From the sequence record NC_101838.1: a stretch of 64,000 bases of DNA. One strand, given 5' to 3'. Under the pieces are notes generated by a model that saw only the letters and a program-made list of their open reading frames with translations, searched no databases and was not told the DNA's origin. The DNA is from a phage. The translations under genes and the position numbers were made by a program. Positions 8,979 to 23,807 of this stretch are shown here, piece by piece. The number at the start of each line of letters is the position of its first letter. The first letter of the stretch is position 1.

Positions 8979-9007
8979 TTGACAACAGTGATGGGGCCTA
9001 ATATAAT
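8979..9007 (+). promoter_or_regulatory. sigma70 promoter
   Basis: TTGACA-N17-TATAAT. Confidence 0.55.
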
Positions 9008-9038
9008 GGCCCTATCAAAACGAAAGGGGACCACAGCA

Positions 9039-12759: not shown

Positions 12760-13185
12760 ATGATCTATGAAATGCCAAAACTGATTCGTGACGATGCCCA
12801 AAACGCTCACACCATTATTATGGGCAAACGCATGGATATTATTTGTCATAAAGATTTCTGGGAAGGAAGTTACTTCACAGAGTATTTTGGTAAACTGGAC
12901 AATGGTCTGCTGATCCAGTTCTACACCGATGCGGAAAACAACATTCCCTGGGAGTTCGAAACTGAAGATGTCCATAAACTTTTCACCTTCCTCGGTATTA
13001 AGGTTAAGGCCAAGTTTGAAGAAGGTGAGTGCGACGATTGTGGATTTTATGAGGTAACAGATTTCTACCTTCCTAGCGGTAAGAACCTTTACTATGAAAG
13101 CCACTTCGGTAACTCCAATATGCCACAGTGCTGGACTGAGTTTTTTGAAATTGCGGAAGAGGAGCTGGCTTACCGTGATTATTGA
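12760..13185 (+). CDS. hypothetical protein
   Basis: ORF with CAGGAGA RBS. Confidence 0.5.
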   Translation: MIYEMPKLIRDDAQNAHTIIMGKRMDIICHKDFWEGSYFTEYFGKLDNGLLIQFYTDAENNIPWEFETEDVHKLFTFLGIKVKAKFEEGECDDCGFYEVTDFYLPSGKNLYYESHFGNSNMPQCWTEFFEIAEEELAYRDY

Positions 13186-13633
13186 TACTGTAGAGGGAGA
13201 TTTAATCTCCCTTTTTAAGAGCGGTGCTGGTCACCTGATCCACGGTTGTAACTGCTTCCACACAATGGGCAAGGGTATAGCAAAACAGATTGCCCGTGAG
13301 TTTCCTCAAGCACTGTCAGCCGACAAAGAGACTAGATACGGTTGCCTAAGTAAACTGGGTGCGTTCTCCCGATGGGAGCACTTATCTCCGGTAGGTATTG
13401 TCTACGGAATCAATCTATATACCCAGTTCTACCCAGGACCTAATGCTGAGTATTTCTCAATCCTGAAAGGCTTTGAGCTAGTCAATGAAGTATTCAGCGG
13501 ATCGACTTTACCATTCTACATCCCTAAGATCGGGTGCGGCATAGGCGGTTTGAAGTGGGAACACGTAGAGGACGTTATTAACCTTGCCACTTTCGACATA
13601 GATATTGTCGTGGTGGAGTACAAAAAGTGTTGA
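13175..13633 (+). CDS. macro-domain protein (ADP-ribose binding/processing-like)
   Basis: Motifs LIHGCNCFHTMGKGIA and IPKIGCGIGG resemble macro-domain signatures; probable GTG start overlapping upstream stop. Confidence 0.5.
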   Translation: MIIDTVEGDLISLFKSGAGHLIHGCNCFHTMGKGIAKQIAREFPQALSADKETRYGCLSKLGAFSRWEHLSPVGIVYGINLYTQFYPGPNAEYFSILKGFELVNEVFSGSTLPFYIPKIGCGIGGLKWEHVEDVINLATFDIDIVVVEYKKC

Positions 13634-15460: not shown

Positions 15461-15499
15461 TACTTGAAAATTCCTGGCATATCAAGTATAAGGGGGATT

Positions 15500-15960
15500 T
15501 CTAAAATGGATTTCCTCCTTTTGATATTTCACCGGGCTGGATATTTTAAAATTCTTAGAAAATCAGAAAATGGATCGAAAACTAAAATGGATTTTTCAGA
15601 GTAGGCGCGACAAGCTGAATAACTCATCCTATCGTTTGCACCATATTCCAGGCCACCATTATAGATTTCCCACACATGCTAACCTCCCTCTACTAGAACT
15701 TCCTCCACTTACCCTTGACCTTCTATGGTAACAATCTAACCGCTATCTTGAAGTTGCGGTGCAGCTTTCCAGGTACTCGATCTACTTTTCATTTCAGGGC
15801 TTGGATTTTCTGAAAATTTTTCTCGATAAATTTCTCAGTACTCGATCTGTTTTTCGTTTTCTGAATCGGATTTTCTGGAAATCGTTCCGGCTCTCAACCT
15901 GAAATTTTTGGGGACGAAATCGATTTTTCGTTTTCAGAAATGGATTTTTAAAATTTCTAT
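15500..15960. repeat. iteron-like direct repeat cluster (candidate replication origin or packaging-related site)
   Basis: Repeated AAATGGATTT, GGATTTTCTGRAAAT and ACTCGATCT...TTTTCRTTT units in a non-coding region. Confidence 0.55.
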
Positions 15961-16065
15961 ATGGGAATATTTTAGTGGATACTATTTTATAGTAAATTGT
16001 TACGGAGGGTAATTAGCGTGCTAATTAAATTTATTAAATGCGAGGAGTTCTCATTTAGAATCTTG

Positions 16066-16084
16066 AATGATAATCATTCTCGTT
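16066..16084. promoter_or_regulatory. Fur-box-like site
   Basis: GAATGATAATCATTCTC closely matches Fur consensus GATAATGATAATCATTATC. Confidence 0.45.
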
Positions 16085-16197
16085 TGCAGAATAACGGGCA
16101 GGCCCGGTGATTGTCTCCCGGCCCCTGTTGCCCCGGCTTGTTATTATAGTATCACACAGGACAAAGAAAGCAAGGATTTTTTGCATAAATTTTTAAA

Positions 16198-16216
16198 TGA
16201 TAATGATAACCGTTCT
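16198..16216. promoter_or_regulatory. Fur-box-like site (second copy)
   Basis: GATAATGATAACCGTTCTC; about 130 bp downstream of the first. Confidence 0.4.
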
Positions 16217-16473
16217 CATTTTATGCAGCGCTCATCCCTGGTGGTTGTCTCCCCCGTCACCGGTGCCTGCCGTCCTTTCGATAGGTATATTGTGCCACCT
16301 GTCGGGGCCGCTGTCAACACTTTTCAAAAAATTTTTCTAACCTGATGCGCTAACCGCTGCAACCTGGCGGGGCCAGCCTGGCAGGACCTAACTGACCAGG
16401 TGGGAGAGGGTGAAATCTTGCAAACCTGGTAGGCCCATGCTGTAGGGTAAACAATTGAAGAGGAGGTACAAAA

Positions 16474-16611
16474 ATGAAAGGTAATGCTACTCACCTGGGA
16501 AATGTAGTGATTAATGATACAGAAGCGCGGGAACATAAAGAAGAGTACGAAAAAATGGTGGTTAACCTGGCGGGGGGGCGGCAGGTGGATTCTATCATAA
16601 AAATAATTTAA
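16474..16611 (+). CDS. small hypothetical protein (45 aa, not in ORF track)
   Basis: ATG after GAAGAGGAGG RBS. Confidence 0.3.
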   Translation: MKGNATHLGNVVINDTEAREHKEEYEKMVVNLAGGRQVDSIIKII

Positions 16612-16619
16612 AATAATCG

Positions 16620-16649
16620 TTGACAACAAGGTTAATCATGGTATTATTA
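16620..16649 (+). promoter_or_regulatory. sigma70 promoter
   Basis: TTGACA-N17/18-TATTAT. Confidence 0.55.
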
Positions 16650-16697
16650 CCCTACAAGGTGAACAACACCGCACTAACCAGTAAAGAGGATAAATTT

Positions 16698-16895
16698 ATG
16701 AACGCATACGGGATCAAAGTACGTCGCAACACTCGCCAGGTGGTCACCGATCAAATGGTTTGCCAGGTGGACGTAACCATCAACAACGGGCAAGGCCTTT
16801 ATAAATTCCGTCGCGGTCAGAGCTATACCCGGCAACAGCTTAATCGTTGCGCCCTGACAAAAGGACAGATCAACCACTGGTTTAATAAAAAATAA
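16698..16895 (+). CDS. hypothetical small basic protein
   Basis: ATG after AAGAGGA RBS (track start 16620 lies inside the promoter). Confidence 0.5.
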   Translation: MNAYGIKVRRNTRQVVTDQMVCQVDVTINNGQGLYKFRRGQSYTRQQLNRCALTKGQINHWFNKK

Positions 16896-17364: not shown

Positions 17365-17392
17365 TTGACACGCTGCAAAATTTAAGTAAACT
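17365..17392 (+). promoter_or_regulatory. sigma70-like promoter
   Basis: TTGACA-N16-TAAACT. Confidence 0.5.
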
Positions 17393-17440
17393 AGACACAA
17401 AAGGCGGGAATGTTTCCCGCCAGCACAAAGGAAAAAGATC

Positions 17441-17836
17441 ATGAATAAGAACGTACGCCGCATCATGAACGAACTGGCAAACGATGAAAAAATTATTGAT
17501 ATGCATTTGGTCAACATTTGCCGCCGTTGTGTAACATATAACAACCGCGCCGCAAAAGCGCGTGAGATGAACGCAAAAGGCACCTTAAAGCCCTTTCAGG
17601 TGGTTGTAAAATCTATAACTAGCGCAGCAGGCCAGGCGCAGGACCACAACAACGAGAGCGCTAATATTGATCCGTCTTACGTAATGAAACGGATCCGGAC
17701 TTGCAAGAATAAAGAGCAGGTATATAACGTCATAGATTGGCTGGACTCCCTGGGCGATGTGGTTTACAATAGGTTTTCTGCAGCTATCGAGATCCAGCTT
17801 GACAGATTGGACGGGAAAGTACTAAAAACTTATTGA
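17441..17836 (+). CDS. hypothetical protein
   Basis: AAAGGA RBS. Confidence 0.55.
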   Translation: MNKNVRRIMNELANDEKIIDMHLVNICRRCVTYNNRAAKAREMNAKGTLKPFQVVVKSITSAAGQAQDHNNESANIDPSYVMKRIRTCKNKEQVYNVIDWLDSLGDVVYNRFSAAIEIQLDRLDGKVLKTY

Positions 17837-17837
17837 G

Positions 17838-17883
17838 TTTATTTTTAGATGGCCTTGACACCAGGGCCATCAATAAAGTAAAC
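17838..17883 (+). promoter_or_regulatory. repeated palindrome/promoter element, copy 1
   Basis: TTATTTTTAGATGGCCTTGACACCAGGGCCATCAATAAAGTAAAC; palindrome GATGGCC/GGCCATC flanks a TTGACA box. Confidence 0.5.
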
Positions 17884-17916
17884 TAACCACAGTTGAGCGG
17901 AAAAGGAGGCTTAAAG

Positions 17917-18036
17917 ATGAGCACTACACGCCAGCACACAAAGGTAACCATCATCGTTTGCATCATTGGGTACATCCTGGCGCAAATGTTGATGGGTAGC
18001 GCCAACGGTGTCGCAAAATTTTTCTTAAACTTTTAA
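17917..18036 (+). CDS. small membrane peptide (39 aa, not in ORF track)
   Basis: ATG after AAAGGAGG RBS; hydrophobic core. Confidence 0.3.
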   Translation: MSTTRQHTKVTIIVCIIGYILAQMLMGSANGVAKFFLNF

Positions 18037-18064
18037 TTGACAAGCTAACTTAAATCGATATAAT
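18037..18064 (+). promoter_or_regulatory. sigma70 promoter
   Basis: TTGACA-N16-TATAAT. Confidence 0.6.
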
Positions 18065-18115
18065 AAGCACATAAACGGGAAAACTTCCCAGAACACACAA
18101 AAGGAGAAAAACACC

Positions 18116-18457
18116 ATGACTACTATGACCGCCTCAGAAAAAGCTATGCAGATCGCTGAACTGAAAAAACAGATCGCAGACCTTGAGAATAAGATCGATA
18201 ACTTTGAAATCGACGAGGACAAGTACGACGAAAACTATGATGAATGGTTAGACGAGATCTACGGCGAAATTATGATCGGAAACATTTCTTTTCTTCCGTC
18301 GCGTATCCTCAAGGAGCTAGATCCTATCGCTTACCGCTGCGGATTTAGCGACTACATCGACAGCCTGGATATTGAGGACGATGAAGAATACCAGGAATTA
18401 CAGACAGAGTTAGAAGAAGCAAAAGAAGAGCTTGCGGAGCTGGAAGAAAACGAGTAA
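18116..18457 (+). CDS. highly acidic coiled-coil protein
   Basis: AAAGGAGA RBS; Asp/Glu-rich sequence. Confidence 0.55.
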   Translation: MTTMTASEKAMQIAELKKQIADLENKIDNFEIDEDKYDENYDEWLDEIYGEIMIGNISFLPSRILKELDPIAYRCGFSDYIDSLDIEDDEEYQELQTELEEAKEELAELEENE

Positions 18458-18503
18458 GCTTATTTTTAGATGGCCTTGACACCAGGGCCATCAATAAAGT
18501 AAA
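18458..18503 (+). promoter_or_regulatory. repeated palindrome/promoter element, copy 2
   Basis: Same 46-bp element as 17838..17883. Confidence 0.5.
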
Positions 18504-18546
18504 CTTTATACTGTTAACACTGAACTAATGCATAGGAGTTAAAACC

Positions 18547-18792
18547 ATGGCAGCACTAATCACCAAATATTATGCCCCTACCAACACCAAAAGCGCCCGT
18601 ATCATGGTAAAAGGCTTCGGACGTAAAAAGGTGTACACCTGGGATTATGCCTTAGACATGGAAGACAACTACACCAACGCAATGACCGATTTTATTAATG
18701 AACTAAATAAGCAGATCTTGACAAGTTATAAAGTGACCGATATTGCTTATATAGGTGAAGGCGGGATCTGTTTTGTAGGCATTGTGAAATAG
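18547..18792 (+). CDS. hypothetical protein
   Basis: ATAGGAG RBS. Confidence 0.55.
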   Translation: MAALITKYYAPTNTKSARIMVKGFGRKKVYTWDYALDMEDNYTNAMTDFINELNKQILTSYKVTDIAYIGEGGICFVGIVK

Positions 18793-18840
18793 TTATTTTT
18801 TCGGTGGTCCTGGCTGCAGGGCCATCTATAAAGATAATTT
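18793..18840 (+). promoter_or_regulatory. degenerate variant of the palindrome/promoter element
   Basis: TTTTTTCGGTGGTCCTGGCTGCAGGGCCATCTATAAAGATAA. Confidence 0.35.
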
Positions 18841-18866
18841 ATCAACACCATGAAAGGAGAAAGTAC

Positions 18867-19220
18867 ATGATCAGCGGGGCTAGTTTTATTATTGGCGCTA
18901 TTGCTACGGCTTTAATTGTAAACAAGATCCAATCTAAAAACGAAAAAGATAGCAACGCGCTCACAGAATACCCATTTTGGGTATTCAACGACAACGAAGA
19001 CTACATAATCAAGTACAAAGATGAGAGAGGCGACCAGGTAACACCGCGACCGATCCCAGCTTACAAGATGCAGGAAACACTATACCGCCTAAAGGCCGGA
19101 GGCGCAAAGATCGTAGACTTTTGGGGATATGATTGCAAGGATCAGGAGGTCATAAAACGTCGTATCCGGGCGATTCAGGCAAATATTGAAATTAGTAAAG
19201 GGGAAATTTATGAAAATTAA
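18867..19220 (+). CDS. membrane-anchored hypothetical protein
   Basis: ATG after GAAAGGAGA RBS; hydrophobic N-terminus. Confidence 0.5.
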   Translation: MISGASFIIGAIATALIVNKIQSKNEKDSNALTEYPFWVFNDNEDYIIKYKDERGDQVTPRPIPAYKMQETLYRLKAGGAKIVDFWGYDCKDQEVIKRRIRAIQANIEISKGEIYEN

Positions 19221-19407
19221 TTTCGAAAAAATTGTAAAGCGCCCCCACGATTCCGAAGAGCTGCCGGAACGCCGCCAGCGTAACAATAAACTGAATAAAC
19301 CGAAAAGGTTCGGGAAGATCTGGAGGAATCACTATGATCGCAAATTACCGGGCCTGCTTTTGGAACGTGAACGACAGGCGGAACGATACCGCCACAAAGG
19401 CAAATAA
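19210..19407 (+). CDS. small basic protein
   Basis: ATG after AAAGGGG; Arg/Lys-rich. Confidence 0.4.
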   Translation: MKINFEKIVKRPHDSEELPERRQRNNKLNKPKRFGKIWRNHYDRKLPGLLLERERQAERYRHKGK

Positions 19408-19423
19408 CAACCAACGCCCCGCC

Positions 19424-19452
19424 ATTGTGCGGGGCTTTTTATTTCTATCCTA
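19424..19452 (+). terminator. rho-independent terminator
   Basis: CGCCCCGC-loop-GCGGGGC followed by TTTTT. Confidence 0.65.
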
Positions 19453-19577
19453 CGAATAGCGCCCCTGGTTGGCCCCACAAACGCCACAAAAGCCCCTACC
19501 TATGCAATCCCCTTTCTTAGCCTGAAAACATCACCCAGGACCGTTTTATGGTGTTAAAAATATCTTTTATTTAAAGC

Positions 19578-19606
19578 TTGACACCTTGGAATCGCCTGGA
19601 TATACT
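19578..19606 (+). promoter_or_regulatory. sigma70 promoter
   Basis: TTGACA-N17-TATACT. Confidence 0.55.
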
Positions 19607-19641
19607 AACCACATCAAAGCAAGAAGAAAGGAGTAAACGCC

Positions 19642-19902
19642 ATGCGTAAATTAAAAAATTTTGATAAAGTCGATGTTGTCCTGAATAATTTTTACTACTG
19701 CAATAATAAGGCCGTTTGGTGGCGTGATAGTTCCACCGATAAAGTTAAAGCGCGCTTTCTCCAGGGGCACTGGCAAGGCCGCCCAGTGATTAAGATCCGG
19801 GGGCAATTGGTAGCGTTTAAAAATTGCCGCCGTGTTGATGACGTTGAAGAGATTCTAAACATTTTACGCCACAATAATTTAAAAAATAGTGTTGACAAGT
19901 AA
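19642..19902 (+). CDS. hypothetical protein
   Basis: AAAGGAG RBS. Confidence 0.55.
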   Translation: MRKLKNFDKVDVVLNNFYYCNNKAVWWRDSSTDKVKARFLQGHWQGRPVIKIRGQLVAFKNCRRVDDVEEILNILRHNNLKNSVDK

Positions 19903-19920
19903 GCCTCAATAAGTATACTT
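19893..19920 (+). promoter_or_regulatory. sigma70 promoter
   Basis: TTGACA-N16-TATACT. Confidence 0.55.
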
Positions 19921-19976
19921 AAACACACAGGCGGGAAAACTTCCCGCCACTAACAAAGAAAATAGGAGAAAATATC

Positions 19977-20600
19977 ATGACCACCGTTAACATTACCGCA
20001 GGTTACAATTTATCTTTCGACGTGCTGACCGACGAACAAAAAGAAAAAGCCGTTGAAATGGTCCGCGAAAGAGAAGAACACAGCGGGGATAACTTTTTTG
20101 CAGAAAGTGTAATTGAATACTATAAAGAATATGTTTTTCCAGAGTATGGCCTTGAAGATACCGAAGTACATTGGTCAGGCTTTTGGTGCCAGGGTGACGG
20201 CGCGTCAATCAGTGCTGAAAACGTGGATTTAGAAAAATTTTTGCGTAAAGTAAAGGCCCTGACCAAGTTCCGATCAATTCGTCACTTGTTCGGCACAATG
20301 CACGATGGCGAGTTATCAGCCAGTGTTGAGCGTGATCCATATAGCCGCTATAGTCACGAAAACACTGTAAGCGGATACATTGATACCACCTGGCTAGATC
20401 TGACCGCCAAACAAGAAAACAAAGTGGAAGACCTGGAAGAGCTGATCACCGAGACGGTACGGGAGCTATCCCGCAAGGTTTACGTAGACCTGGAGGAGGC
20501 CTATCTTGAACAGTTTACTACCGAAAACCTGATCGGCCTTATTGAGGCCAATGATTGGCGGTTTGATGTGGATGAATATGGCGAGATGACTTTTTCATAA
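19977..20600 (+). CDS. hypothetical acidic protein
   Basis: ATAGGAGA RBS. Confidence 0.55.
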   Translation: MTTVNITAGYNLSFDVLTDEQKEKAVEMVREREEHSGDNFFAESVIEYYKEYVFPEYGLEDTEVHWSGFWCQGDGASISAENVDLEKFLRKVKALTKFRSIRHLFGTMHDGELSASVERDPYSRYSHENTVSGYIDTTWLDLTAKQENKVEDLEELITETVRELSRKVYVDLEEAYLEQFTTENLIGLIEANDWRFDVDEYGEMTFS

Positions 20601-20689
20601 ATAAAGTGTTGCAATAACCTAAAAACCTGCTATATTAAAACTCAAGGGGGCAAGACGTTTGCCCCACACAAAACAAAGAGGAAAACATT

Positions 20690-21070
20690 ATGAAAAACAC
20701 TACCAAGGCTATTGACACCGTTATGTTTAACCTGGTTACATTCCGTGAAGATATGAAAGATCTTCCACGTGAAACAGTGTGCGATCACATTGAAAACTAT
20801 CGCAAACTAATCAAAGAGTTGCCCCTAAAACGTGACCAGTATGCGGCTAACGCTATGCTCAACGCCATGATCAAAAAGATGATCCAGTGTGATTTAACCC
20901 TGGCCTATGACTATGCGGGTGGTCGTTTTGCAGTATACAATCAGCCCGTGCCTGGTATGGGCACCACCGAAGAATTGCACGCGCTCAATCTAAAACAAGA
21001 CGTATGGGATAACATGCCCCGCGTGGTGGTGTGGGCAGAAAGCGGAAAGATTTACGGCGATAATTTTTAA
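20690..21070 (+). CDS. hypothetical protein
   Basis: AAGAGGA RBS. Confidence 0.55.
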   Translation: MKNTTKAIDTVMFNLVTFREDMKDLPRETVCDHIENYRKLIKELPLKRDQYAANAMLNAMIKKMIQCDLTLAYDYAGGRFAVYNQPVPGMGTTEELHALNLKQDVWDNMPRVVVWAESGKIYGDNF

Positions 21071-21079
21071 TCAGGTAAC

Positions 21080-21103
21080 AGGCGGCAAATATGCCGCCTT
21101 ATT
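21080..21103 (+). terminator. weak intrinsic terminator hairpin
   Basis: GGCGGCA-loop-TGCCGCC followed by TTATTGTT. Confidence 0.35.
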
Positions 21104-21134
21104 GTTAAACAGAACTGCAAAAGAGGTACATAGA

Positions 21135-21506
21135 ATGGAATTTATTATTTTGGCTGTAGTAGTTGCCTTGTTCAACGCCTGGATCGCTGGCAAGATGGGT
21201 AGATCCGCCTTTTTATGGTTTATTATATCTATTTTCCTGGGGGTGGTTGCAACTATTGTACTTGTTATCCTTGCAATTGTTGACAAGGGGAATAATAGAA
21301 AGGGTAAAGTATTTTCAGACCTGTACGACGCTCAAACGTTTGTCAACGCCTATTATAGTGATCTTCCAGTCTCCCTACGCTGCAGCCTGGCACAACAAGT
21401 TTTCGATGAGGCTAAAACCAGAGATCAAGCCCATGAGATATGTTTAACTGAGGCGGATCGCCTATTTGAGAGGAATAGAAAATATGTGGGCCAACCGTTT
21501 AAATAA
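21135..21506 (+). CDS. membrane protein (two predicted transmembrane helices)
   Basis: ATG after AAAGAGG RBS; hydrophobic segments. Confidence 0.5.
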   Translation: MEFIILAVVVALFNAWIAGKMGRSAFLWFIISIFLGVVATIVLVILAIVDKGNNRKGKVFSDLYDAQTFVNAYYSDLPVSLRCSLAQQVFDEAKTRDQAHEICLTEADRLFERNRKYVGQPFK

Positions 21507-21705
21507 TGCCACGTTAATTAATCCCTTTAGTGAAGATTTGAAGCCAGCCGCCTGGCGTGATGGATTCAATAACGAACGCTTTATTTTCAAGCCTGATCTT
21601 GAGGAATTTTATAACAATGGATCGAACAACGACAGAGATAATTTTTCTTGTGGTGTGCGTAGTGATGGTACTCCTGGGGGCCATTGTAAACCACGTCACT
21701 ACTAA
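21484..21705 (+). CDS. hypothetical protein
   Basis: ORF overlapping the end of the previous gene. Confidence 0.35.
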   Translation: MWANRLNNATLINPFSEDLKPAAWRDGFNNERFIFKPDLEEFYNNGSNNDRDNFSCGVRSDGTPGGHCKPRHY

Positions 21706-21725
21706 CAGGGGGAAAGGGGGAGACG

Positions 21726-21845
21726 ATGACACCCAAGGATAAGCCCCGCACCGATAAGGCGCGCCGTGTTATGGTATGGCTTGAGATCATCGCCCTTGAA
21801 ATATTGTTAGGGGTAGGGATGTACTTTATCGCTGTAAGTAACTAA
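21726..21845 (+). CDS. small membrane peptide (39 aa, not in ORF track)
   Basis: ATG after AAGGGGGAG RBS; hydrophobic C-terminal half. Confidence 0.3.
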   Translation: MTPKDKPRTDKARRVMVWLEIIALEILLGVGMYFIAVSN

Positions 21846-21849
21846 GAAC

Positions 21850-21878
21850 GGCCCCCCGATCATGGGGGCCTATCTTTT
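21850..21878 (+). terminator. rho-independent terminator
   Basis: GGCCCCCC-GATCAT-GGGGGCC followed by T-rich run. Confidence 0.6.
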
Positions 21879-21904
21879 AAAAAAAAAAAAAATTCTTCCG
21901 GGGT

Positions 21905-21933
21905 GTTGCAATCCGGTCCGGAATGTGGATAAT
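21905..21933 (+). promoter_or_regulatory. sigma70-like promoter
   Basis: TTGCAA-N17-ATAATA. Confidence 0.45.
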
Positions 21934-21989
21934 AACAATCAACGGGGAGCTAATCCCCACCACCACAAAAACCAGAAAGGAGAAACAAA

Positions 21990-22190
21990 ATGAGCAACAA
22001 TATCCGCGTTATTAACTTCAAAAAAGAAGAAAAAATTGCCGTGCTGATTGACGGTCAAGAAATCTTCAAGGGCGACTATGAAGATCATCAAACGGCGATT
22101 AGTATCACTCGCGTGATTGGTTACCATAATTTTTACCCCCAAGGCGCTGAGGCAGCGGTTAAACGAATCAAAGAGATTGTAGGCCTGTAA
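21990..22190 (+). CDS. hypothetical protein
   Basis: AAAGGAGA RBS. Confidence 0.55.
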   Translation: MSNNIRVINFKKEEKIAVLIDGQEIFKGDYEDHQTAISITRVIGYHNFYPQGAEAAVKRIKEIVGL

Positions 22191-22193
22191 AAT

Positions 22194-22238
22194 TTATTTT
22201 TAGATGGCCTTGACTCCAGGGCCATCAATAAAGTAAAT
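22194..22238 (+). promoter_or_regulatory. repeated palindrome/promoter element, copy 3
   Basis: Same element as 17838 with TTGACT in place of TTGACA. Confidence 0.5.
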
Positions 22239-22284
22239 TTAAACCCTGTTAAAAATACCACGCAGTTAACAAGGAGTGATAGAC

Positions 22285-22584
22285 ATGTTTATCCAGGCTA
22301 ATAATCTTTATTTCTTTGATGGTCAGATCGTAGACGGTGTGGAAGTGGAGATCACCGGGTGCCCTGGCGGTCAGGCTATGACTTTTCGGAATAATGCCTT
22401 TGATGATTCTCATATCGTTATGAGAATGGAAGTTACGAAGCTGGACGACAAGAAAACACTTATTGACTATTCTGTGAAAGATCATCCAGACTACCGCATG
22501 ATCCATGGCGATTTGTGCATTGTTGACCGTGACAAGGTGGGCGGCATTGTGATCGCTATTGTGAACGATGTTTTCTCAAACTAA
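22285..22584 (+). CDS. hypothetical protein
   Basis: ATG after AAGGAG RBS. Confidence 0.5.
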   Translation: MFIQANNLYFFDGQIVDGVEVEITGCPGGQAMTFRNNAFDDSHIVMRMEVTKLDDKKTLIDYSVKDHPDYRMIHGDLCIVDRDKVGGIVIAIVNDVFSN

Positions 22585-22601
22585 TTTCAGCAGGTGATTT
22601 T

Positions 22602-22952: not shown

Positions 22953-22990
22953 GGCCCCAGGCAGGGCCTGCAGCGATATAATCACATAAA

Positions 22991-23021
22991 GGCTATGCGG
23001 TTGCATGGCCTTTATTATTTT
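22991..23021 (+). terminator. intrinsic terminator
   Basis: GGCTATGC-loop-GCATGGCC followed by TTTATTATTTT. Confidence 0.5.
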
Positions 23022-23072
23022 AGCGTTACAGCGGCCCCAAGGCGCTTAAAAAAAAAATTTTTAAAGAAGTAC

Positions 23073-23756: not shown

Positions 23757-23807
23757 AAATCAAAGGGGGGGCAACAAGCCCCACCAACCACAAAGAGGAT
23801 AAAAATC

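Follow-up and report, generated by a model that had tools for sequence, protein, structure and literature searches.

A putative promoter and stem-loop element repeated at the junctions of small early genes in a Vequintavirus

A palindrome that covers a predicted -35 box and recurs between small genes raises the question of whether it acts as a site on the DNA, as a structure in the transcript, or as a substrate for recombination. Such a palindrome is found in sequence record NC_101838.1, a phage DNA of 64,000 nucleotides (here called the window) from a Vequintavirus, an rV5-like myophage with 99.8% identity to Escherichia phage pangalan in the 6 kb tested. It belongs to an element of 49 nt that occurs four times within 4.4 kb. 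The element is probably a composite of an early promoter, a transcribed stem-loop, and a recombination repeat, which forms the junction between small early-gene cassettes and resembles the promoter-early stem-loops (PeSLs) of T4-type phages. The evidence comes from strand-specific conservation of an RNA hairpin and from the precise loss of a cassette between two of the copies.

One element in four copies

A repeat search of the window reveals a single 49-nt family, with all four copies on the + strand. With copy 1 (17836-17884) as the reference, copy 2 (18457-18505) shows 98% identity, copy 3 (22191-22239) 94%, and a diverged copy (18791-18839) 73%. The family is the longest and best-conserved dispersed repeat in the 8-30 kb of the window. 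Its 24-nt core, GATGGCCTTGACACCAGGGCCATC, is found exactly at 17848-17871 and 18469-18492 and with one mismatch at 22203-22226, and no match to it appeared in any of 100 shuffled sequences. An earlier, sequence-only reading of this DNA had described three near-identical copies plus a degenerate fourth, which the core match and the repeat search both confirm. Several of its details require correction. The quoted string comprises 45 nt and not 46 bp. Its position at 22194-22238 is correct, while the other two occurrences lie at 17839-17883 and 18460-18504, 1 to 2 nt away from where they had been placed. Across this string copy 3 differs from copies 1 and 2 at two positions (A to T in the loop and a terminal C to T) instead of by a single TTGACT substitution. 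The inverted repeat, given as the 7-bp GATGGCC/GGCCATC, is a 10-bp stem formed by GATGGCCTTG and CAGGGCCATC with one T.G pair around a 4-nt loop, and the A/T-rich flanks supply a second 10-bp stem.

All four copies are intergenic, within a long run of small early open reading frames (ORFs) on the + strand downstream of the DNA polymerase gene. Each adjoins the stop codon of the upstream ORF, and TTTATTTTTA directly follows TGA, TAA, or TAG in four of four cases. Copies 1 and 2 start on the last stop-codon base of ORFs 17441-17836 and 18116-18457, respectively, the diverged copy overlaps the stop codon of ORF 18547-18792, and copy 3 directly follows that of ORF 21990-22190. The distance from the end of the element to the next ATG is 27 to 45 nt. 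The seven flanking ORFs are all ORFans, belonging to PHROGs of unknown function and containing no Pfam domain. Among them are an 81-residue ORFan between copy 2 and the diverged copy (18547-18792, + strand) and a 99-residue ORFan downstream of copy 3 (22285-22584, + strand), the ATG of which lies 45 nt past the hairpin.

A search of related genomes, proposed in the earlier reading, shows that the element, at four copies per genome, is confined to this genus. A covariance-model search detects no further copy in the window or in the rest of the pangalan genome, and scans of IMG/VR and metagenomes for distant homologues retrieve just a few contigs with the same configuration. The syntenic regions of Seunavirus SSE121 and of phi92 contain neither the element nor a comparable repeat. 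No Rfam family reaches its gathering threshold in the window, and in 17500-22600 only sub-threshold chance matches are seen. The sequence of the element was not found printed in the literature searched. An origin in the host or mimicry of a host sequence was rejected, with zero matches in 5,426 Escherichia coli genomes. Among the public records, 17 GenBank entries of the MG0656xx series, labeled "Campylobacter phage" (A135, C12, A147, and others), are 95% identical to E. coli Vequintavirus genomes in this region; their host label probably reflects an error or contamination.

Recombination between the copies

The suggestion that the element is a recombination repeat is shown in silico to be right by two independent, precise cassette deletions, each leaving a hybrid element. 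Phages magaca and ECP32 each contain one hybrid with the left flank of copy 1 and the right flank of copy 2. The lost unit measures 621 bp from copy start to copy start, and in the alignment all 561 cassette columns are gaps in both phages. At least two events are required because the deletion phages are distant from each other, forming the most distant pair in the set with 91 differences in 940 flank positions, and the cassette is present in a near-identical relative of each (0 of 474 and 6 of 465 left-flank differences). The body of this cassette (17885-18456, + strand) is comprised of a 39-residue ORF at 17917-18036, a promoter at 18037-18064 with the sigma70 consensus, and a 113-residue ORF at 18116-18457. 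The cassette is carried by 114 records and the element by 120, with some of the element-only records being short fragments.

Private variants shared by paralogous copies within one genome, as in copies 1 and 2 of phiWec196 and of JeffSchatz and copies 2 and 3 of rV5, indicate gene conversion between the copies. A role as a preferred mosaic boundary found no support: mosaic switches fall at the four copies in 1 to 5 of 66 to 91 genome pairs, within a background of 0 to 12. The elements thus appear as recombination substrates and not as demonstrable hotspots.

The ORFans next to these copies have relatives elsewhere. The 81-residue ORF shows homologues with 35 to 46% identity in unrelated phage groups. 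Taken together with the 113-residue ORFan, 35 to 55% identical homologues are found in unrelated phages, namely, Seuratvirus-type 60-kb coliphages and phages of Vibrio, Proteus, Pseudomonas, and Klebsiella.

The sense-strand hairpin and the embedded promoter

The four copies share one fold of the + strand RNA, in which a lower stem of 10 bp, rich in A/U, is separated by a 2x3 internal loop from a G+C-rich upper stem, also of 10 bp, that is capped by a tetraloop. The lower stem is formed by the flanks TTTATTTT and AAAGTAAA, and the arms of the upper stem are GAUGGCCUUG and CAGGGCCAUC, with one U.G pair included. In copy 1 the lower stem pairs 17836-17845 with 17875-17884, the internal loop occupies 17846-17847 and 17872-17874, the upper stem pairs 17848-17857 with 17862-17871, and the loop lies at 17858-17861. 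Folding energies on the + strand range from -21 to -25 kcal/mol across the four copies, with z scores of -5.6 to -7.8; copy 1 reaches -25.1 kcal/mol and a z score of -7.8. A covariance model built on the two-tier structure and used to search the window scores the four copies at 73 to 82 bits on the + strand and 26 to 41 bits on the - strand. The individual values are 82.4 against 40.3 bits for copy 1, 80.9 bits (z, -5.7) for copy 2, which has the same anatomy, and 82.4 bits (z, -6.5) for copy 3. The diverged copy, with the loop GCUG, scores 73.4 against 26.2 bits, and its fold has a z score of -5.6 on the + strand compared to -0.08 on the - strand.

Comparison across 16 genomes covered 61 copies, 37 of them distinct; besides the window, the sources were 13 GenBank Vequintavirus genomes and two IMG/VR contigs. 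Among the 37 distinct copies, standard pairs fill 97.8% of the pair cells when the + strand is read and 86.9% when the - strand is read, and G.U cells number 89 and 9, respectively. As a control, shifting the 3' partners by 1 to 3 columns leaves at most 57% of the cells paired. Both sides change in a compensatory manner at lower-stem pairs 6-54, 7-53, 9-51, and 10-50. In the orthologous diverged copy, for instance, pair 7-53 occurs both as U-A and as C-G. Pair 6-54 is found as G-C, A-U, or G-U. The upper helix shows four kinds of one-sided substitutions (A-U to G-U, U-A to U-G, C-G to U-G, and U-G to C-G), all of which retain pairing; the two pair-breaking changes in this stem each occur in a single sequence. 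The pattern suggests that the hairpin has been selected as a sense-strand RNA rather than as a symmetric DNA site, because G.U content and pairing depend on which strand is read. The transcript-level hairpin, which the earlier reading had offered as a processing signal, is well supported as a structure by the strand-specific G.U pairs, the compensatory changes, and the folding of the diverged copy on the sense strand only. One exception to the conservation is copy 1 of phage Gotham (locus L024, 6001-6052), where a 5-nt deletion in the right arm abolishes both the hairpin and the promoter spacing; this amounts to a natural knockout of one copy in a viable phage.

In the DNA, the same positions spell a promoter. 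A promoter scan on the gene strand finds TTGACA-N18-TAAACT in copies 1 and 2 (10 of 12 consensus positions) and TTGACT-N18-TAAATT in copy 3 (9 of 12). The predicted -35 and -10 hexamers lie at 17855-17860 and 17879-17884 in copy 1, at 18476-18481 and 18500-18505 in copy 2, and at 22210-22215 and 22234-22239 in copy 3, in each case correctly placed ahead of the next ORF. The -35 hexamer is enclosed by the upper stem, where it spans the top three pairs and continues through the first three bases of the loop; the -10 hexamer coincides with the lower-stem 3' arm. In copies 1 to 3, TTGAC is almost invariant, whereas the sixth -35 base and the loop base after it vary freely, in agreement with the way in which information is distributed over a -35 hexamer. 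TTGACAC and AAGTAAACTA of the element recur in the promoter at 17365, P194 in Table S4 of rV5; the element itself is absent from that list. In the Gotham record, PhagePromoter calls copies 2 and 3 promoters. It is plausible that copies 1 to 3 carry a host sigma70-type promoter, as predicted. The label "promoter element" used in the earlier reading therefore suits these three copies by their consensus hexamers and placement but not the diverged copy, which has no -35.

Other promoters of the region are also associated with hairpins. Five sigma70-type promoters, at 17365, 18037, 19892, 20609, and 23727, are each followed a few nucleotides past the -10 by a G+C-rich hairpin (17403-17421, 18076-18090, 19930-19948, 20647-20665, and 23768-23782; for example, GGCGGGAA-N3-TTCCCGCC). 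These hairpins would lie at the extreme 5' end of the mRNA and could act as 5' stabilizers. The sequences at 18064 and 19920 form one repeat family (D9). A second type of promoter and stem-loop composite is found at 8979-9017, where the -10 of a consensus promoter, TTGACA-N17-TATAAT, lies in the loop of a GATGGGGCC/GGCCCTATC hairpin with arms that recall those of the element.

An unlikely alternative takes the element as a plain sigma70 promoter within a neutral repeat, the hairpin being a by-product of module duplication and the deletions incidental homologous recombination. The consensus hexamers, the PhagePromoter prediction, the young and homogenized copies, and the failure of the elements to act as mosaic hotspots all agree with it. 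The diverged copy does not. It has CTGGCT in place of the -35 and still keeps both stems through G.U pairs and compensatory changes in several lineages, as at pair 7-53; the hairpin thus appears to be conserved independently of the promoter. In the same copy, a change of A53 to G weakens the -10-like hexamer but is compensated in the opposite strand of the stem. Nucleotide diversity points in the same direction, since the element cores, at 0.8 to 4.8%, are equal to or below the flanking coding DNA and are more conserved than the neighboring consensus promoter at 18037, with a diversity of 12%.

The operator proposed in the earlier reading, a 24-bp near-palindrome over the -35 that a dimeric phage or host regulator would bind as DNA to repress three early promoters coordinately, has a low probability and is the least supported of its suggestions. 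The geometry is classic, with the palindrome centered on the -35 and three near-identical copies ahead of three ORFs, and the phage encodes a putative transcriptional regulator (pangalan_142). With DNA parameters, copies 1 to 3 are symmetric enough to pair on both strands, and their half-sites are symmetric save for the one T.G. The conservation nevertheless appears to track RNA pairing and not symmetric half-sites: the substitutions are strand asymmetric (89 against 9 G.U cells) and maintain pairing instead of half-site identity, and the covariation extends into the A/T-rich flanks beyond the palindrome. The diverged copy, without a -35, carries all three of its half-site changes on the left, where they follow RNA wobble rules, and yet is conserved across genomes. 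Readings of the invariant CAGGGCCATC-N-ATAAAG segment as an IHF site, a MotA box, or a T4 late promoter were also considered by eye and do not agree with it.

The role of the hairpin and its known counterparts

The position of the hairpin immediately after a stop codon invites its interpretation as a terminator, and the Murica record annotates two copies in this way. A stable G+C-rich hairpin in this slot agrees with that annotation, and stem-loops of T4-type PeSLs without obvious U-tracts lowered downstream expression (PMC2839356). An intrinsic, Rho-independent terminator is nonetheless very unlikely here. Immediately 3' of the stem, the sequence reads AAUAAAG on the + strand and UAAAAAUAA on the - strand, so that neither strand offers a 3' U-tract; on both, a U-rich tract precedes the stem and an A-rich tract follows it, the reverse of the order in a terminator. 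The terminator scan does not call the element, although it calls classical terminators nearby, at 19416, 21080, 21850, and 22986. The annotation is wrong in the strict sense. Extrusion of the palindrome as a DNA cruciform, a supercoil switch that would place the -35 in a single-stranded loop and turn the promoter off, is highly improbable: hairpin formation is possible on both DNA strands of copies 1 to 3 (-12.3 and -10.7 kcal/mol), and extrusion would be favored by the A/T-rich flanks, but the bottom-strand hairpin contains mismatched A.C pairs, the - strand of the diverged copy gives no such fold, and the strand-asymmetric conservation points to RNA.

The four junctions contain no other terminator or 3' signal next to the upstream stop codon, and classical terminators are present at other junctions of the region. 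The hairpin most likely serves as RNA punctuation of read-through transcripts. The leading candidate for its role is that of an RNase III processing site because of its geometry of 10 bp, a 2x3 internal loop, 10 bp, and a tetraloop; the roughly two helical turns of duplex interrupted by an internal loop match an RNase III substrate. As a fallback, it would act as a barrier to 3' exonucleases or as an attenuator.

The closest structural counterparts are the early RNase III sites R0.3, R0.5, R1, R1.1, and R1.3 of phage T7, at the positions reported by Dunn & Studier 1983. Folded in the same way, these five sites show upper stems of 9 to 10 bp and loops of 4 to 5 nt and form a dispersed family of near-identical intergenic sequences adjoining promoters. 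Like the element, they place in the sense-strand RNA a G+C-rich upper stem with a G.U pair, an internal loop at its base, and a lower stem of less strength. The two families have no homology in sequence, the lower stem of the element is a regular 10-bp A-U helix, and its internal loop is smaller (2x3). The promoter lies inside the hairpin in the element and beside it in T7, and cleavage of the element is a candidate activity only.

For the fallback role, a precedent exists in the 3'-stabilizing hairpins of the REP/BIME type. These are repeated, transcribed palindromes between the cistrons of enterobacterial operons. They have no U-tract, and the mRNA upstream of them can be shielded from 3' exonucleases. 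The element shares the repetition, the intercistronic location, and the missing U-tract. It represents an unrelated sequence family with nothing similar in E. coli genomes, and REPs do not contain promoters. Promoters associated with an inverted repeat are also known from phage N4, whose virion RNA polymerase, encoded by the phage, uses promoters with stems of 5 to 7 bp and 3-nt loops. The 10-bp stem, the 4-nt loop, and the sigma70-type hexamers rule out a hairpin promoter of the N4 type. The rV5 genome paper treats that phage as dependent on the host RNA polymerase.

The best match as a whole is found in the PeSLs, described for the T4-type phages RB49/phi1, T4/PST, and KVP40/nt-1 (Arbiol et al. 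2010, PMC2839356; Comeau et al. 2014, PMC4122927). PeSLs lie between ORFans in plastic regions, where recombination between copies excises cassettes (PMC2839356, PMC4122927). Judged by sequence, the element appears to share every defining PeSL feature. Both are intergenic and extend from the stop codon of one ORFan toward the start of the next, and both join a sigma70-like early promoter to an A/T-rich tract and to a stable stem-loop, which in the element covers the -35, one of the five placements described for PeSLs. In both, several conserved copies cluster in a plastic early region, and ORFan cassettes are lost through recombination between copies, with a chimeric element remaining. Intergenic cassettes of Krischvirus, the genus where PeSLs were defined, look alike under the same layout procedure.

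The two phage groups also draw on a common gene pool, and rV5 ORFs have been annotated as RB49-like. A macro-domain (Tk.4-like) gene at 13094-13633 of the window (locus L038, 4998-5453) shows 69% protein identity to a gene of Krischvirus (RB49-like), compared to only 32 to 36% with other Vequintavirinae genera, which indicates gene exchange between the Vequintavirus and Krischvirus lineages.

The differences are equally clear. The element belongs to Vequintavirus and the PeSLs to Straboviridae, with no sequence similarity between them. It comprises four copies of one sequence family, compared to dozens of PeSLs, and its stem-loop has two tiers, with an internal loop and about 20 bp in total, in contrast to the polyG/polyC stem of PeSLs. 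The elements are not enriched as mosaic boundaries. The description of PeSLs also includes measured promoter and terminator or attenuator activity and mini-circle formation, and the element is described here from its sequence.

The composite model has three layers. In the DNA, copies 1 to 3 would provide a T-rich UP-like tract, a -35 TTGAC(A/T), an 18-bp spacer, and a -10 TAAA(C/T)T, and transcription of the next ORF from the embedded promoter would begin 27 to 41 nt ahead of its ATG. In the RNA, read-through from an upstream promoter would allow the same 49 nt to fold, from the upstream stop codon onward, into the two-tier hairpin, about 20 bp in all; it may define or protect the 3' end of the upstream cistron and uncouple the downstream cistron. 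Host RNase III may process this hairpin, and without cleavage it would serve as the exonuclease barrier or attenuator. In the genome, as shown in silico, the near-identical direct repeats serve homologous recombination and gene conversion, by which whole ORF-plus-signal cassettes are deleted or moved with the neighboring genes left undamaged. A stricter form of the model, which is possible but tentative, is that the 49 nt are dual coded, as the DNA promoter of the downstream cassette and as an RNase III-type RNA hairpin that ends the upstream message, with selection at both levels.

Several points weigh against the composite model. The genomes compared are at least 90% identical, so that few independent substitutions lie behind the covariation, and the copies have been homogenized by gene conversion. 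Many variants of copy 2 fail to pair at the outer 2 to 3 bp of the lower stem. Neither the 18-bp spacer nor the TAAACT hexamer is optimal, with far better promoters nearby, and since the -10 and the 3' arm of the lower stem share bases, their conservation is not assignable to one function. RNase III has no strict consensus, and the likeness to its substrates is geometric only. In a sliding test, mosaic breakpoints between genomes were not enriched at the elements. The literature contains no RNA sequencing or transcription start site mapping for Vequintavirus and no measured transcript ends, promoter activity, or cleavage for rV5-like phages.

Some further sequences of the region lie apart from the element. 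The 1.2-kb stretch at 15473-16698 has no annotated gene in pangalan, and three to four imperfect tandem-like repeats of about 65 to 74 nt are found at 15763-15948. The G-rich motif ACCTGGCGGGGGGGCGGC is present at three positions, 16565, 23104, and 25192. Fourteen consecutive A residues (21879-21892) lie downstream of the classical terminator hairpin at 21850-21870, and a similar A10/T5 run at approximately 23045-23070 follows hairpins near 22986-23015.

The element would represent a PeSL-like junction outside the T4-type phages, a kind of structure already known and hence a modest rather than a surprising find. If this interpretation holds, the shuffling of ORFan cassettes by promoter and stem-loop junctions is not restricted to T4-type phages, and the annotation of the same sequence as a promoter in one public record and as a terminator in another is accounted for. 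With four copies, one natural deletion series, and one copy without a -35, the element is a compact system for testing the RNA role of such stem-loops, in rV5-like phages that are widely used in therapy and biocontrol collections. Should dual coding be true as well, each ORFan cassette would possess a self-contained start-and-stop module that is at the same time the homology by which the cassette moves, and the PeSL principle would extend past the T4-type phages with a defined RNA mechanism.

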